Shown: piece after piece, positions 6,826 through 51,593 of the stretch
How the letters are laid out: the number at the start of each line of letters is the position of its first letter
How positions within the stretch are numbered: position 1 is the stretch's first letter
DNA from: Callorhinchus milii
Taxonomy: Eukaryota
Assembly (NCBI RefSeq): GCF_018977255.1
Contig: NW_024704742.1
Span: 42,720,001 to 42,784,000 of the forward strand
Direction of reading: 5' to 3'
Length of the DNA: 64,000 bases
Program-made: the position numbers and the translations under genes
Notes under the pieces: model-generated
What the model was told of the DNA's origin: nothing
Database searches by the model: none
What the model saw: the letters and a program-made list of their open reading frames with translations, nothing else

Positions 6826-7306
6826 ATAATAAATAATCCTTGCATATCATATAGCACCTTATCACATCATTGAGACATCTAAAAGGGCATCACAGGATAT
6901 CCTCTAAAGTGGTGTGTCTATGTATATTTGTGGGCAAATGCAGCAGACAATTTGCGCGCAGCAATGTCCCACAAATAGCCAAGGAATGAATGAGCAATTT
7001 TATTTGGTGGATTGTTGGGCAGGACGCCAGGAGAAATTCCCTCACCTTCCGAATAGTATCATGGGATCTTTAATGTCTCCCCAAACAGCTGACAGGACCT
7101 CAGTTTAACATCCCAACCACAGGATAACCTCTTTGGCATTGCAACACAACCACAGCATTGCATTCGAGTTACATCTTAGACTACACAAGTTCCAAGACCC
7201 AATGTGGGGTTTGAATGCAGAACCTTCTGACTCAGAGGCGAGTTGGGCCACTAACCGAGCTAGGATGACACTATTACCATTTAACACAGTACAAGGAAAG
7301 CTTCTT
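6826..7306 (-). mobile_element. SacSINE1-like SINE with an extra 5' leader
   Basis: Tail, Deu core (gcgcgcagcaatgtcccacaaa) and head on the minus strand; the 36-bp leader is shared with 13091-13126. Confidence 0.85.
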
Positions 7307-7321
7307 CCTCCTTGTTCCCAC

Positions 7322-9305
7322 AACAACAACAAAATGACATTTATAGAGCGCCTTTCATGTCGGGAGGACGTCCCAAAGCGCTGAACGGTCAGGTGTCGGG
7401 GCTGGAGCATGGGAGAGGGGTGGAGTAGGGGTGAGGGAAGGCAGAGAGGTGGGAGGGAGACCAAAGGCATGATCGAAGAGAAGAGTCTTGAGACCGGCCT
7501 TTGGCCTTGAAGGAGGCAAGGGAGGAAGAGAGGTGAAGGGACCGTGGGATGAAGTTCCAGAGTGTGGGGTCAGAGACTCTGAAAGCCCAGCCACCGATCA
7601 TAGGGCTGGTCGGGTGGGTGACATGGAGCAGACCGGAGCCCGCTGAATGGGGGGAGTGGGCAGGTTGGTAGTGAGTCAGCAATTCAGAGAGGTAGGAGGG
7701 GGCAAGGCCATGGATGGCCTTGAAAGTGAGGATGAGGATCTTGAATTCGAAACTCTGGGGGATAGGGAGCCAGTGGAGTCGGGCGAGGATGGGAGTGATG
7801 GGGTCACGCAGCCTGGTTTTGGATGATCTGCAGCTTGTGAAGGGAAGAGTTGGGAAGGCCGATGAGGAGGGAGTTCCCGTAATCAAGCCTTGAGGTGACG
7901 AATGCGTGGGTGAGGGTTTCGGCAGCCTGAGGGGTGAGGCAGTGGCAGAGTCTGGCAATGTTGCGGAGGTGGTGGTAGGCAGTGCAGGTCATGGCGCGGA
8001 TGTGGGGGAGAAAGGACAGTTCAGGGTCAAACAAGATACCCAGGTTCCTGACTGGCTTAGTGAGGTTGAGTGTGCAGCCGTGGAGGCTGATGCTGCCAGC
8101 GCCCGAGGTGCGGAGGTGCTGGTGTGAGCCAATCAGGAGGGCCTCGATCTTGTTGATATTGAGTTGGAGAAAGTTGACCCTCATCCAGGACTTGATGTCG
8201 GACAGGCAGTTGGTCAGGACGCCAGTAATCCTGGAGTTGAGGGTGGAGGCAGAGAGGTAGAGTTGGGTGTCATCCGCATACATGTGGAAATTTACCCCAT
8301 GTCTGCGGATGACATCACCAAGGGGGAGCATGTAGAGGGTGAAGAGGAGAGGACCAAGGACGGAGCCCTGAGGAACACCACACGAGACGGTGCGAGGGTT
8401 GGAGGAGAAGCCATTTGCCGTGACGAAGTGGAGGCAGTGTGAAAGGTAGGACCTAAACTAGTCAAGGACAGAACCTTGAAGGTTGAGGTGGGAGGAGAGG
8501 CGGTGGAGGAGGATTGAGTGGTCCACGGTGTGAAAGGCGGCGGAAAGGTCCAGGAGGATGAGAAGCCAGAGGGAGCCCTGGTCACACATGGTCAGGATGT
8601 CGTTTGTGACCTTGACCATGCTGTGGGCAGCACAGAAACCCGATTGGAGGGGTTCATGGAGGGAGTGGGAGGAGAGAAAAGAGCGAAGCTGGACGGCAAT
8701 GGCTCTCTCAAGGACCTTCGATAGGAAGGGGAGATTTGAGATGGGCCGGTATATAGATGGCTGTGATGGGTCGAGGGAAGGTTTCTTCAAGGTGGGGCTG
8801 ATAGTGGCTGTTTTGAGGGGGGAAGGAACAGTGCCAGATGACAGGGAGAGGTTAATGATGTCGGCGAGTAGTGGGACAAGGAGGTGGAGCTGGGATTTAA
8901 GGAGAGGGGTGGAGATGGGTCCAGGGAACAGGTGGTGGGCTTCATGGAGGTTACCGTGTTGAAGACAGAGGAGGGGGTGACAGGTTCAAAGGTGTGGAAG
9001 GAGGGATGGGTAATTGTCGGATGGGTAATTGTGTGGGGTGGGGGTAGGGAGGGGTTGGAAGTTGGGAGGGCAGTGGCAGCTGAGCAGATTCTCTCAATTT
9101 TGGACTCAAGGAAGTCCAGCATTGTCTCGCAGTGAAAGTCAGAGGAAAGTATCTGTGAGGCGTGTCGTGGAGGAGCCGGTTAGTGATGGAGAATAGGAGC
9201 TTGGGATTGCCTTCTGCGTCCAGGATTAACCTGGAACAGAAAGATGATTTGGCTGAGGCGAGAGCGGAGCGGTAGTTCTTGATGAGGTCCAGCCAGATGT
9301 TGCGG
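7322..9305 (-). mobile_element. L2 LINE, ~2 kb 5'-truncated, with a disrupted reverse transcriptase
   Basis: ORF pieces [46 protein letters not shown]; several frameshifts; (AAC)n tail. Confidence 0.97.
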
Positions 9306-9339
9306 TATATATTTATACAGCGGTATATAAATAGATGCA

Positions 9340-10790
9340 TATTTTGGAGTTAGAAGCAAGTTATCAAAACAATGATTGAGTGAAAAGCAGTGTTAAAGTG
9401 TATTTTTCAGTCAGTGAGAAGCTAGAAAGGTAATGATTAATAGGGGAATTTTGTAATGTGGCAGAGCAGTTAGTGTCAAGCAAACATCTTTCTTGGATGC
9501 CAACAGGAAAACAGTCCCAATGAGTGAGTAAATTTGTCAGTGGTACATAAAGTGTTAAAATAAGAGAATGCATATTCCAAGCCTTTAAGAGAGCCTGTCT
9601 CAGGATTGTCGAGGAGAAGCATCGAGGAGAAGCAATGTGGGAAGCATTTAGTGGGAACAGAAGGAAGTCGAAAATAAGGTAAAAAAAGAAATATGGTAAT
9701 TTCCAAGCACTGTTTTAATGACATGAAACTGAAATCCATCATTTGGAGAAAAGGAGGAAACATAGGAGGGACCACAGAGGTCGAATAAAGAAGTCAAACA
9801 TAACCTAAAGACTAATAAGAATTATTGTCAAAACTACAAAGAAATATAAAAATCGCAAGTCAGGGTGCCATCAAATGACTGGTGAGCACAATTAAAATGA
9901 TTATTCTGAGGAAGAGAAAATAGAAAGGCAGATTATAAGTAGCTGCAAGACAGCAACAAAGAAATCACTTAGCAATGTAAGATGTAAGTCGTGTTAAAAG
10001 AACAGATAGATCCTTAAGGGATGAGCTCAATAGTAATATAAAGTGGTATTAGGAAATGACAGATGTGTTAAATTAATTCTTCATACTGCTGTTTCTTCAT
10101 GCTGCTGTTCACAAATGGATTTAAATGTGGAATAATGTAAGGTAATGCACATCAGCAAGAGAAATATGAAACGTGTCGAGAACAAATAGTGTTCATTTAT
10201 GAATTATTGACCATTCGCTAAGAGTATCCAGTGAACGTACATCTGTTATCAACAAAACTGATTAGGTGTTATTACGGATACACTGTAATTACATTTAATG
10301 TGTTCAAACAGATCATTTTAACCCCATGTAACCCGTTTGTAACTTATTACAAAAGCCACAGTTAGAATATTGTGTGTAATTGTTGATATCATGCACACCA
10401 AATAAATTGATGGATTGGAGAGGATCCAAAATGAGCAACAGAGATAATTCTGAGAATTAAAACCACAAGATATGAAGGACTGTTTAACGAAATGCACAAA
10501 TAATCATTGGAATAAGTTTGGATCTGATCATGGACTTCAATGTGGTTTCTTTCCAATGACGTAGGTAACACACCTCAACAATAAATTAGTTTTAAAAATA
10601 ATCTATATTAATATTTGATTAAATAAATTAATAAATAATCATGCATTTACAGAATTATTTATTATTATTAATAAAAACTTTTGGAGCGCAGCAGTCTGGA
10701 ATGGTGCAATCCTTCCCAGAAATATATTTCAACAAGGAGAAGCAACACGGTCCTGTTGGGAAAGAAAAGTGCACCATTTATAGTCTGGAT
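9340..10790 (+). mobile_element. Highly decayed CR1 LINE fragments (endonuclease region, RT C-terminus, 3' region)
   Basis: Remnants such as gaagcaatgtgggaag (EAIW), atggatttaaatgtggaataatgtaaggtaatgcac (FNVEKCKVMH-like) and tggaatggtgcaatccttccc. Confidence 0.65.
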
Positions 10791-15093: not shown

Positions 15094-15128
<35 letters not shown>

Positions 15129-15432
15129 CCTTGCATTTGATATAGCGCTTTTCACGTCAGGAGGACGTCCCAAAGCGCTTCACAGAACACACTGTAAAGT
15201 GAATTGACTGTATATTTGTGGGCGAACGCGGCAGCCAATTGCGCACAGCAATGTCCCACAAACAGTCGTAGATTGAAAATGACCAATTTAATTATTGTTT
15301 TTGGTTTTGGAGGGATTATTATTAGGCGTGTGGAGTAAGGAAACTTGCCCAAGGTTTCGCCCTGCCTGGAATTGAACTCAGGTCTCTCACTTGCAAAGCG
15401 AGTGCTCTAACCACTGAGCTACAGGACTCCAC
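15094..15432 (-). mobile_element. Full-length young tRNA-Ala-headed Deu-type SINE (SINE2-1_CM-like)
   Basis: Head gtggagtcctgtagctcagtggttagagcactcgctttgcaagtgagag with A/B boxes; Deu core; L2-like 3' end; (TAT)n. Near-identical to 51268-51593. Confidence 0.96.
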
Positions 15433-23539: not shown

Positions 23540-23735
23540 TTAGCACATATAGAAGTCTANTTTTTTTAAAAAGGAAATAGATAAATACTTGAAAAACAGG
23601 AATATTAAAGAGTGTTGAGATCGAGCAGGAGAGTGGGATTAGATTAAAGTTGCATGTGAAGAAAAACACCAGCTCAGACTTGATGGGTCAAATAAGTCAA
23701 TTTCTATGCCCTAACATTTTATGATTCTATGATAA
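23540..23735 (+). mobile_element. CR1 3' end
   Basis: ggaaatagataaatacttgaaa...gcaggagagtgggattag...gacttgatgggtcaaat...(ATGATTCT)n tail. Confidence 0.75.
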
Positions 23736-26030: not shown

Positions 26031-27142
26031 CATTTTGACTCCCCAAGGAGAACAGTCACTAGACCAAAGACCAAACTACACTGCACCTCTCTGGTTACAA
26101 AAGGATAGTCAATACAACTCCAATATAGTCAAAATATACCTAAGTTAGCAAATCTAAAGAAATCATGGGAAGAATTCAGTAGTTAAATTACTAAAACGGT
26201 AATAGCTACTGGGGTGAAAATTGTAGTTTGCCAAAACCCATTCCATACCTTAAGTATTGCCACTGAAAATTAAGAAACACTTCATCAACTGGAAACTGTC
26301 CTTAGGGACAGGTGCAGACTTGAACATCCCTGACTTCAGGAGACTGACTGGTTTCTCCTTCAGGCTTCTTTCTCATTGTCAGTTTGACATTGATGTGCTT
26401 TTTGAAAAATAATTAGTGAAAGCCAATTTTTGAATTCCCAGCTGTTAGAACAGCTTTTAGAACTATAACCTTTTAATTTTAAAATTACTTAGCCAGTATC
26501 TGGCAAAGAAGCAGACAATCCACATTTGTGAGCCAATTAAAGACTTGGTCAAATAAAACAAAATGCAATTTTGCTTGTATCAATTGGTTCCCTTGAATGT
26601 ACTGTAATCGGTTTCCTTTCCTATGGACTAACAACAACAACAACAACAAGATTCCATTTATTGAGCGCCTTTCACGTCGGGAGAACGTCCCAAAGTGCTG
26701 TACAGTTGGGTCAGGACCCGAGCAGGGGGGATATGGTCAGGGTGAGGGGAGGGAAGGGAGGGAGCGAGGAGGGGGTAGAGTTGAGAGGGGAGCTGAAGGC
26801 ACGGTCAAAGAGAAAGGTCTTGAGCGGCCTTCAAGGAGGAAAGGGAGGAGGCGGTGAAGGCACTGGGGGATGGAGTTCCAGAGCCTCGGGGCTGAGAGGC
26901 TGAAGGCCCGGCCACCGATGGTAGGGCGGTTGGGGCGGGGGATGTGGAGTAGACCGGAGCCAGAGGAACGGAGGGTACGGGCAGGTAGGTAGGGGGATAG
27001 TAGGTCGGAGAGGTAGGAGGGAGCAAGACCGTGAATGGCCTTGTAGGTGAGGATGAGGATCTTGAATTCGATCCTCTGGGGGATGGGGAGCCAGTGGAGG
27101 CGAGCGAGGGTGGGAGTGATGTGGTCCCGAAGCCTGGTGCGG

Positions 27143-27314
27143 ATCAGGAGGACAGACCGCCAACTCGCAGCAGGACTGTTGGGACAGTATCATCGACTCG
27201 ATAGCTAAACCCACATCACCGTTACAGTGGTCCAGAACAGTCTGCAGCAACTCCGGATTCTGTTGTGGGAACGCGTGGCAGAGCACCGCGAGGTGGGTCG
27301 GATACCCGTGGATG
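27143..27314 (-). pseudogene. Captured gene fragment resembling a DMRT-family DMA (CUE/UBA-like) domain
   Basis: Open frame IHGYPTHLAVLCHAFPQQNPELLQTVLDHCNGDVGLAIESMILSQQ matches the DMA pattern L..hFP.Q....L..VL..C.GDV..AIE; CpG-rich; no homology to the surrounding L2 or SINE. Confidence 0.75.
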
Positions 27315-27424
27315 TACAGTCAATTCACTTTACAGTCTATTCTGTGAAGCGCTTTGGGACGTCCTCCCGACGTGAAAAGCGCTATATCAAATGCAAGGAT
27401 TATTATTATTATTATTATTATTAT
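27315..27424 (+). mobile_element. Young SINE 3' tail fused to the DMA-like fragment
   Basis: Nearly identical to the 3' ~110 nt of SINE 51268-51593, including (TAT)n. Confidence 0.95.
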
Positions 27425-27829
27425 AGTACACGAGCTGCAGAGTTCTGAATGACCTGCAGCTTGTGGAGGGAGGTACCGGGAAGGCCGGCGAGGAGAGAGT
27501 TCCCATAGTCCAGCCTTGACTAAAGAGAGTGATGTGAAAATGCTCTCAATCTGCCAATACTTAAAATATTTTGAAAAATACTACAGTTATGGTACTTAAG
27601 TTAGTGCATTTAGCTGCACAGAAAAGTTGAATTATTGGTAAAACCAGTGCAGAACTCATTGTTCCAACAGAGCCACAAATCGATTACCTTGTAATAATGT
27701 CTGATACAATCTACCAAAATGTTTAATGTCAGTTTTCATCTCAAGGTCTTCAGTTGACAAATTTCATCATCACCAATGTGCACAGTATCAGCTGTAGTAG
27801 AAAACTCTTAATATCATAGTCAGCTTTTA

Positions 27830-35340: not shown

Positions 35341-35542
35341 GTCCAACAGCATGGCCAGAAGGTCCAAGTAAAAGTCTAATCTCTCCATCGTTCCATCCTA
35401 TTTCAGATAACCCAGTAGATAGATGAAGTGTAACCAAGTACTATTTAAATTCCATACCACAAGATCACAAGAGCATGATGAAAAAGGCATTTGGGCCTAT
35501 TTAACCTAATTCTTCTAAATTATCCTGTCTACAATCTTGCCA

Positions 35543-35851
35543 TTATAATAAATAATAATAATCCTTGCATTTGATATAATGCTTTATCACGTCTTCTAGA
35601 CATCTCAAAGCGCTTCACAGAATATACGGTGAAGTGAATTGACTGTATATTTGTGGGTGAAACATGGCAGCCAAATCCACATAGGAGTCGTGAATTGAAG
35701 TGACCAATTTATTATTGTTTTTTTTCTTGAGGGTTTATTATCAGGCGTGTGGCGTAAGGAAACTTGCCCAAGGTTTTGCCCAGCCGGGAATAAAACCCAG
35801 GTCTCTCACTTGCAAGGCGAGTGCTCTAATCCCTGAGCTACAGGACTCCAC
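35543..35851 (-). mobile_element. tRNA-Ala-type SINE (older 'tagaa'-loop subfamily)
   Basis: Head ends ggactccac at ~35851; tail cacgtcttctagacatctc. Confidence 0.93.
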
Positions 35852-47919: not shown

Positions 47920-48900
47920 CATTCCTTGAAGCTCCCTGGCCTCTCTCTCAAACTCCCACAAAACCGCTGTCATCAGTTCTCTCTTACCCTCGATCCCTCG
48001 AACCTCACAAATTGCAGACTCATCTCAAACCCGCCCTTCCTGGCCAAAGTTTTGGAACGCGTGGTTGCAAATCAACTTCGCTCACACCTCTTCCTCCACT
48101 CCCTACTCGAAAACCCCCAGTTTTCGCACTGCCTACAGCACAGAGACAGCACGCGTCAAAATAACAAATTACATCCTCTCTCTCTGTGACTAGTGCTCCC
48201 TCTGCTTCCTAGTCCTCCTGGATCTCTCTGCCACATTTGACACAGTCGACCATTCCATCCTCCTTCACCGCCTCTCCGCCTCATCCACCTTAGTGGGACC
48301 GCACTTGCATGGTTCGAGCGCTACTTGACTAACTGGCAACAATATATCTCGGCAAACGGTTTCTCCTCTCACCCTGCCCGGTTACCTGCCAGGTACCCCA
48401 GGGCTCCATCCTTGTCCCTCTTCTTTTCCTTATCTATATGCTCCCTCTGGCGATGTCATCCGCAGATTTCCACATGTATGCGGATGACACCCAAATCTAC
48501 TTTGCCTCCTCCAGCTGTGACTCCCAGTCCGCTACTATCCTGTCAGCTTGTTTGACGGACATCAAGGCCTGGATGAGCGCAAATTTCCTGCAGCTTGAAC
48601 GTCAGCAAGATGAAAACCATACTCTTTGGCTCCCTTTAACGTCTCCTCCACTCCACCATCGGCGGACGTGCTTTCAGCCACAACGCCCTGAAACTCTGGA
48701 ACTCTCTCCCTCAATCGCTCCGCCTTGCCCCCTCCCTCTCCACTTTAAAATCTCACCTAAATACCTTCCTTTTTGATCGTGCTTACGGTCACCTCCCATT
48801 CCCTCTCCCCCGGCTCAGGATCAGGCTCCACCACTGTCAAGCGCTCCAGAACGCTACCCTGCATGAAGGGCATTACACAAATGCAAGTTGTTGTTGTTGT
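47920..48900 (+). mobile_element. L2 with an RT remnant and internal deletion
   Basis: [38 protein letters not shown]; (GTT)n tail. Confidence 0.95.
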
Positions 48901-51267: not shown

Positions 51268-51593
51268 GTGGAGTCCTGTAGCTCAGTGGTTAGAGCACTC
51301 GCTTTGCAAGTGAGAGACCTGAGTTCAATTCCAGACAGGGCGAAACCTTGGGCAAGTTTCCTTACTCCACACAGAGCCTAATAATAATCCCTCCAAAACC
51401 AAAAACAATAATAAATTGGTCATTTTCAATCTACGACTGTTTGTGGGACATTGCTGTGCGCAATTGGCTGCCGCGTTCGCCCACAAATATACAGTCAATT
51501 CACTTTACAGTGTGTTCTGTGAAGCGCTTTGGGACGTCCTCCCGACGTGAAAAGCGCTATATCAAATGCAAGGATTATTATTATTATTATTAT
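51268..51593 (+). mobile_element. Full-length young tRNA-Ala-type SINE inserted into a CR1 3' end (~51143-51263, minus)
   Basis: Complete head, core and tail; flanking atagt duplication; the CR1 3'UTR resumes after the tail. Confidence 0.96.

Follow-up and report, generated by a model that had tools for sequence, protein, structure and literature searches.

The twin-priming model is that of Ostertag and Kazazian. The closest described systems are chimeras of L1 with cellular RNAs (antisense tRNA, 5S, mRNA/L1), in which two cDNA segments of opposite orientation are contained in one insertion; in L1 chimeras the opposite orientation is a signature assigned to twin priming rather than to template switching (PMC13174262). 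The second component of the insert described here belongs to the DMRT family of genes, of which DMRT7/DMRTC2 was long regarded as mammal-specific (PMC7689362) and is newly reported in reptiles (preprint 10.64898/2026.07.14.738559). The words shark, cartilaginous and DMA are absent from the text of that preprint, and among the titles and abstract openings searched in the literature none was found that addresses a DMRTC2-like gene in cartilaginous fishes.

In the window, which is the whole 64,000-nucleotide stretch of Callorhinchus milii DNA that was analysed, the truncated 3' end of a SINE is joined to an inverted piece of a probably spliced DMRTC2-like mRNA within a young LINE copy. The insert belongs to the known class of LINE-mediated chimeric retro-insertions, and it probably originated in one event of twin-priming type, performed by the reverse transcriptase machinery of the LINE on which the tRNA-Ala SINE depends for its mobility. 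The features of the locus are as follows.

26629 to 27140, minus strand: 3' part of the host LINE copy, from the ...RLRDHITPTLARLHWLPIPQRIEFKIL... frame to the 3' tail and a (TTG)n microsatellite.
26831 to 27319, minus strand: stop-to-stop open frame of 162 codons, not a gene, which leaves the DMA fragment and crosses the LINE in a frame other than that of the LINE.
27141 to 27149, no strand: left junction, where target and mRNA copy share GG as microhomology, extending to at most 9 nt (GGATCAG..) with a variant target.
27141 to 27314, minus strand: inverted fragment of the presumably spliced mRNA of a DMRTC2-like gene, 174 nt, encoding (Y)IHGYP...DMA domain...CPPD.
27315 to 27398, plus strand: 5'-truncated SINE, the last ~84 nt of a ~340-bp tRNA-Ala-headed element, from alignment to full-length copies.
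27399 to 27424, plus strand: (ATT)8AT microsatellite tail of the SINE and 3' end of the insertion, read directly and present also on other SINE copies.
27425 to 27519, minus strand: 5' part of the host LINE copy, which is 5'-truncated at 27519.

The insert lies in a minus-strand LINE copy of very recent age (26629-27519) that is 5'-truncated at 27519. The left part of the copy (26950-27148) was 96-100% identical to the 39 other genomic copies scored (40 scored, self included, of 1157 first-look candidates), with 97-100% over 192-197 nt, and identity to another genomic copy was 100% over 192 nt. Eleven other copies were read through the insertion site and found to run ...GGTGCGG(G/A..)ACAG|TACACGAGC... 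with no bases between. Spelled out with the variants at the site, these empty copies read ...CCTGGTGCGG(GACAG / ATCAG / ACAG / AACAG)TACACGAGCTGCAG..., uninterrupted, and go on as ...ACAGTACACGAGCTGCAG..., while the window copy has 284 additional bases between ...GGTGC and AGTACACGAGC. The loose ends at 27519 (GGTGATAAAGGCGTGGACC) are as in other LINE copies. The host repeat is contiguous on both sides of the insert and the insertion is precise, with a target site duplication (TSD) of at most 2 bp (AG) or, alternatively, a loss of 3 bp from the target; the AG at 27425-27426 may belong to the target or be a duplicated 2 bp.

An older related copy in the window (7726-7893), 73% identical to the host, is located just 3' of open reading frames matching RVT_1 at 7804-8985 (59 and 43.8 bits), and the host is identified as a LINE on the basis that this related copy adjoins frames with reverse transcriptase domains. 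The host and partner LINE, labelled L2 in the initial annotation, is putatively of the L2 clade, with which the LHWLP motif fits. A search of Rfam for a LINE 3'-element family found none, and a sub-threshold lncRNA match was returned at 26584-26804 with 14 bits versus a gathering score of 55. Older LINE copies with RVT_1 frames broken by stops are present at 7105-9714 (minus strand) and 48333-48776 (plus strand), and the window contains a single N at 23560. No cellular protein-coding exon was recognised in the 12 long frames scanned of the 44 in the window with at least 110 codons.

The plus-strand part of the insert (27315-27424) was 96.5% identical over 113 nt to the SINE copy at 15103-15215 on the minus strand and 97.2% identical over 107 nt to that at 51487-51593 on the plus strand, with ~35 more places in the window matching it at greater divergence. 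Alignment of six copies revealed an element of ~340 bp, of which the insert keeps only the last third. Full-length copies are located at 15103-15427(-), 35542-35847(-) and 51273-51593(+), each with a tRNA-Ala(TGC) head predicted by ARAGORN (15358-15427(-), 35776-35847(-) and 51273-51342(+), respectively); the copy in the insert is without a tRNA head as a result of its 5' truncation. A 3' tail common to a SINE and a LINE is the usual mark of a SINE-LINE partnership. The tail of the present SINE and the 3' terminus of the host LINE itself (26652-26705) share 83.6% identity over 55 nt which, combined with the tRNA-like heads of the full-length copies, identifies the family as tRNA-derived with a LINE-matching tail. 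Recent activity of the family is indicated by two of the full-length copies, whose identity to the SINE tail of the insert is 96-97%.

The remaining part of the insert is rich in CpG, with an observed/expected ratio of 0.84 (12 CpG) versus 0.35 in the whole window. Its bounds, 27141-27314, are those of the stretch common to the window and the parent sequence described below, and replace the bounds first given as 27143-27314. The minus strand of the segment reads without a stop as LYIHGYPTHLAVLCHAFPQQNPELLQTVLDHCNGDVGLAIESMILSQQSCCELAVCPPD, the window portion comprising 57 codons. This peptide scored 37.4 bits against the Pfam DMA domain (PF03474), versus a gathering score of 23, which is well outside the range of chance (E 1.8e-9, covering positions 4-37 of the 37 in the profile), and a genome-wide scan for the DMA family also recovered the segment, with 40 bits. 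The score against the CUE domain (PF02845) was 14 bits, below the cut-off of 21.1. These results are in agreement with the initial annotation, which had described a non-repeat, CpG-rich segment of 172 bp joined directly to the last ~110 nt of a SINE, a cassette interrupting an L2 without an obvious TSD, and a stop-free frame with a DMA motif on the strand opposite the SINE. A derivation of the segment from the SINE body was rejected, the local score of 17 being equalled by 167 of 500 shuffles. A high-copy repeat, the alternative that the initial annotation had itself named, was likewise rejected: in searches of the 991.5-Mb assembly with the whole segment and with both halves only the window itself matched, with no second copy of 27141-27314, and the parent that was expected to be found in the source genome is absent from this assembly.

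In order to place the fragment among known proteins, 1.84 billion representative sequences were scanned with HMMER, which returned 14 matches at E ≤0.001. The real relatives among these are three shark proteins, 54-55% identical over residues 3-58, from Stegostoma tigrinum (XP_048379654.2), Chiloscyllium punctatum (GCC20917.1, a DMA-domain protein) and Rhincodon typus (a gene model). They are the sole eukaryotic matches with E <1e-10, the other three below that threshold being bacterial repeat proteins. The remaining matches, to bacterial Ig/HYR/ankyrin repeat proteins, were set aside as compositional noise. Two more shark members are a Scyliorhinus canicula protein named 'DMRTA2-like isoform X2' and Chiloscyllium plagiosum LOC122544212. 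The complete shark DMRTC2-like proteins contain a DM domain, a DMA domain and a weak DMRT-like (PF15791) region, assigned partly from precomputed domains, the last with a sub-threshold 25.2 bits in the shark protein (cut-off 27). An alignment of six sequences has 27 invariant columns, including IHGYP.H before the Pfam domain and AIES inside it, and the fragment is 48-57% identical to the shark DMRTC2-like proteins.

The family scan located four canonical DMA exons in the genome (C5:159564, C32:996725, C48:369081 and C32:984649). The fragment was only 24-28% identical to three of them (C32:996725 left out of the comparison), versus 48-53% to the shark proteins in the same comparison, and the shark query P0007 scored 69 bits on the fragment versus 36-40 bits on all four canonical exons. 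The genome's own DMA genes were therefore rejected as the parent, none of the four exons or of one further weak CUE-like place being close. Taken together, the identities and the shark-query scores indicate that the template was the counterpart of the shark DMRTC2-like gene and not DMRT3, DMRTA1 or DMRTA2. The divergence from DMRT3/A1/A2-type domains that the initial annotation had claimed is confirmed by these values; of its proposal that the source was an atypical DMRT paralogue or a DMA/CUE-bearing gene or element, the DMRT gene stands and the unplaceable oddity or element does not, given the shark counterpart. Judged by its sequence, the parent is a member of the chondrichthyan DMRTC2-like genes, with the DM domain and C-terminus seen only in the shark members. 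The label DMRTC2 derives only from the NCBI name and the sub-threshold PF15791 match in the shark protein, and orthology to DMRT7/DMRTC2 is putative.

The scans also located other DMRT genes. A seventh DM+DMA gene is present at C32:984649-986954 (L011, L030), 10-12 kb from a DMRTA1-like gene, with a DM exon reading ...CILISERRRVMAAQ; its ERRRVMAAQ is common to the shark DMRTC2-like proteins, while the other six DM exons read ERQR(V/I)MAAQ. The DM exon at C1:87596702-87596866 (L033) is taken to be DMRT1-like, and DMRT3-like and DMRT2-like exons are located together on C48:349340-384529. From this placement on C1 versus C48, DMRT1 seemingly lies outside the usual DMRT1-3-2 cluster, or the cluster is split by the assembly. 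After the DMRT3-like DM exon at C48:382847-386029 (L027) the frame enters an extended microsatellite of (CA)n type, whose translation is HTHTHT... over several hundred codons. The weak DMA/CUE-like frame at C4:14685636-14685695 (L013), LMKLQASFPHYEKDVLETLLKECNGDLENVTQLLL, scored 26.8 bits on DMA and probably belongs to some other gene as a CUE-type domain. Four dispersed places, C7:3724885, C12:9906680, C1:8402129 and C107:10493 (L032, L034-L036), match the final ~58 residues of the Stegostoma DMRTC2-like model at 41-64% identity, which suggests that the C-terminus of that model is repeat-derived.

The near-identical and possibly unannotated parent that had been predicted was found in public sequencing runs of the same organism, with 100% identity over 174 nt in four runs. 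The share of the words of 27143-27314 present in five runs of the organism was 1.00 in X1, 0.64 in X2-X4 and 0.27 in X5. Run X5 is from the same study as X2-X4; runs X6 and X7, which share their study with X1, contain next to none of the words. The low shares in X5, X6 and X7 could be due to a difference in coverage, in tissue or in presence/absence. Contigs of the four runs X1-X4 were aligned to the window at 26950-27600; X1 (2013) comprises 59 M letters of contigs and X2-X4 886-963 M letters each. A single X1 contig of 752 nt with depth 35.4 matched 27141-27314 with 0 differences at contig positions 353-526, and continued for 352 and 226 letters off the window on either side of the match. 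Neither the LINE nor the SINE thus borders the parent. Depth of X1 was zero on the unique flank 27522-27600, which indicates that X1 is not a whole-genome library; its label as RNA is a guess, none of the runs holding the segment being on record as RNA.

The contigs of X2, X3 and X4 (337, 363 and 330 nt) matched 27141-27232 only, again with 0 differences, preceded by 219, 267 and 212 unlike letters and followed by 26, 4 and 26. In all three runs the depth changes past 27232 and the next contig starts at 27232, as calculated from bin means, and in all four runs the parent alignments begin at 27141. These ends overlap by one letter at 27232, as would be predicted from a canonical intron CTGG|gt...ag|ACCAC (phase 1, codon D30), with the exon-exon junction presumably between 27232 and 27231, and the share of 0.64 in X2-X4 versus 1.00 in X1 is expected of DNA that lacks the words spanning that junction. 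The simplest reading is that the parent is present in X2-X4 as genomic DNA, its DMA domain split by an intron, and in X1 as spliced mRNA. The GT..AG intron is deduced from alignment ends and depth bins and not from intron letters, and a transposable element insertion or structural variant in the parent of X2-X4 would produce the same break. Continuity in the RNA-like X1 combined with the break at 27232 in the DNA-like X2-X4 indicates that the fragment was probably copied from a sense mRNA after splicing.

A reading in which both parts of the insert were copied on the same strand was weighed against these results. The reverse transcriptase would have switched from SINE RNA to an antisense DMRT transcript, or would have copied a read-through RNA of a DMA exon abutted by a SINE. 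According to PMC13174262, LINE chimeras classically arise by template switching, and the initial annotation had suggested antisense transcripts. However, the stretch at the 27232 break is missing from the copy as expected from removal of a GT..AG intron in the sense direction, and an antisense RNA would have retained it. Moreover, the 226 letters of the X1 contig past 27314 do not match the window SINE at ≥90%; since the contig continues unlike the SINE there, the parent has no SINE at the 27314 junction. A same-strand origin is therefore very unlikely. The 5' capture pictured in the initial annotation, if by simple template switching or read-through, does not agree with a piece that probably derives from spliced sense mRNA and is inverted with respect to the SINE, whereas an event of twin-priming type does.

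The parent, an expressed DMRTC2-like gene, is present in neither the assembly nor the annotation. Its peptide words had no match among the proteins of 32-2000 aa in a collection of 5.8 billion, PF15791 had no match in the assembly (best 17 bits, E 4.3), and no DM exon in the assembly was assignable to the parent, all seven DM exons found being those of other loci. Indirectly, the insert implies transcription of the parent in the germ line or the early embryo, and a very recent use of the parent as a template (0 differences in 174 nt). The parent is represented in one RNA-like run and in the contigs of three DNA-like runs, with a fourth in part, but not in the 991-Mb assembly. One explanation for its absence would be a location in DNA without a counterpart in the reference individual or tissue, either a sex-limited (Y-/W-type) or a germline-restricted region. 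That explanation is held to be quite improbable, and far more probably the assembly has an ordinary gap where the DNA is rich in GC or in repeats.

None of the contigs of X1-X4 among the 32 listed of >105,000 pieces bridges either junction of the insert, so that the chimeric structure is read from the assembly only, and the insert may be private to the sequenced individual. An artefact of assembly, with the 284-bp insert absent from the genome of the organism at this site, would be consistent with that result in four runs and with the lack of about a third of the sampled words in X2-X4. Against this stands the exact anatomy of a retro-insertion (a 3' tail, a precise uninterrupted target and a 5'-truncated SINE), which an assembler would not create. 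Contigs also break in repeats and are unable to demonstrate an absence, the contigs listed are 32 of >105,000 pieces, and a young insertion can be polymorphic. An artefact is accordingly regarded as highly improbable.

The SINE is on the plus strand with its tail at 27399-27424, the sense of the mRNA is on the minus strand, and the target is uninterrupted. The opposite orientation favours twin priming, since template switching, RNA ligation and read-through would each give the same orientation. In the proposed mechanism, target-primed reverse transcription (TPRT) would begin on the SINE RNA at its (AUU)n tail, the right end of the insert, and would copy the last ~110 nt only. On the opposite side of the break, the 3'-OH of the top strand (...GCGG or ...GGATCAG) would then anneal through 2-9 nt of microhomology to a bystander RNA, the spliced sense mRNA of the DMRTC2-like gene, and prime a second cDNA of 174 nt, after which the two cDNAs would be joined at 27314|27315. 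This geometry would leave the mRNA piece inverted beside the SINE. The order of the priming steps is the presumed one, and twin priming, documented for L1, is extended to the present LINE only by analogy.

At the left junction the microhomology is certain for 2 nt (GG, 27141-27142) with the consensus target GCGGGACAG, and extends up to 9 nt only if the target had the variant of locus L016, found in a single copy; of the 11 other LINE copies read at the site, eight show GCGGGACAG, one shows GCGGATCAG and two show neither. The alignment of the parent begins inside ...GCGG, and microhomology in this position is consistent with the second DNA end having primed on the mRNA. On the side of the mRNA 3' end, where 27141 joins the LINE directly, no poly(A) is present. 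The lack of a clear TSD, a hallmark of TPRT, counts against the proposed mechanism. For LINEs other than L1 the TSD is often short or absent.

The same junction bears on an origin in two separate events or by capture during break repair, in which a break in the LINE first took up a piece of the DMRT gene, as cDNA or DNA, and a truncated SINE was inserted later exactly at its edge, or a free cDNA was joined to the site. In the latter version end joining would have attached a free fragment of cDNA to the 5' side of a SINE insertion that had aborted, the second DNA end not priming. The absence of a TSD agrees with such an origin, as does a microhomology of only 2 nt if the target was the consensus. 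Filler DNA is known at the 5' junctions of LINE-mediated insertions, which is a further point on its side. However, two independent hits on the same nucleotide of a LINE copy diverged by 0-2% are improbable, and no DMRT sequence is present to the right of the SINE tail. The version with end joining differs from the favoured mechanism only in the priming of the second cDNA. Overall these origins are considered unlikely, and within a one-event chimera twin priming is somewhat more likely than plain end joining of free cDNA.

The insertion is very recent, as indicated by the 0 differences in 174 nt from the parent, the 100% identity of the LINE copy over 192 nt and the 96-97% identity of the SINE tail, and it may be polymorphic. 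The lack of any difference from the template in 174 nt also means that the partner LINE was active very recently. The insert is without a start codon, promoter or DM domain and is most likely an inert, non-functional by-product. The 162-codon frame and the intact DMA residues could be taken to indicate a functional exon or a domesticated mini-gene at the locus. Intactness of the domain is explained by age, the copy having 0 differences from its parent in 174 nt. No ATG is found ahead of the domain, and the frame runs on into LINE sequence out of frame, the part downstream of the insert being a proline-rich read-through of GC-rich LINE DNA. There are no canonical splice sites at 27140/27141 or 27314/27315 on either strand, and the only X1 contig on the segment has flanks that are not those of the window. 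There is accordingly very little likelihood of a function as an exon at this locus.

The insert is a clean natural case of a LINE/SINE system other than L1 producing an inverted mRNA chimera, a geometry that has been catalogued mainly for mammalian L1. It also flags a hidden gene, an expressed DMA-bearing member of the DMRT family that is the counterpart of the shark DMRTC2-like genes and that gene-family surveys on this assembly would miss. A DMA-bearing relative in cartilaginous fishes bears on the origin of the DMRT7/DMRTC2 subfamily. According to PMC12952989, descriptions of the sex chromosomes of holocephalans and sharks are only beginning to appear, and the sex-determining system of this lineage is essentially unknown. 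If the parent were sex-limited or germline-restricted, it would be a candidate gene for sex determination or meiosis, and if that reading were true a DMA-bearing DMRT7-like gene would be pushed back to the jawed-vertebrate ancestor.

Compared with known genes, the fragment resembles the shark DMRTC2-like proteins in the DMA domain and its specific flanks (IHGYP.H ahead of the domain, AIES inside it), but those proteins are 78-80% identical to one another and the divergence of the fragment from them is far larger. The DMA domains of DMRT3, DMRTA1 and DMRTA2 belong to the same Pfam family and have the same FP...L..VL..C.GDV..AIE core as the fragment. In the DMRT3/DMRTA1/DMRTA2-type genes of the same genome the DMA domain is inside one large exon, whereas the parent of the fragment appears to have an intron within it.

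Compared with known insertions, processed pseudogenes and retrocopies are like the insert, as it is read here, in being copied from spliced mRNA, intron-less and dead on arrival. The insert differs from these in containing only 174 nt of internal coding sequence, with no poly(A), no 3' UTR and priming that was not at the 3' end of the mRNA. The chimeras of L1 with cellular RNAs likewise consist of two cDNA segments in opposite orientation, with the 3' end and tail of a retroelement on one side, a 5'-truncated copy of a bystander RNA on the other, and microhomology at the outer junction. Unlike those chimeras, the primary template here was a SINE and not the LINE itself, the machinery would be that of a LINE other than L1, the tail is a microsatellite instead of poly(A), and there is no TSD. 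The genome is that of a cartilaginous fish, and the second template was an internal 174-nt piece of a presumably spliced mRNA.
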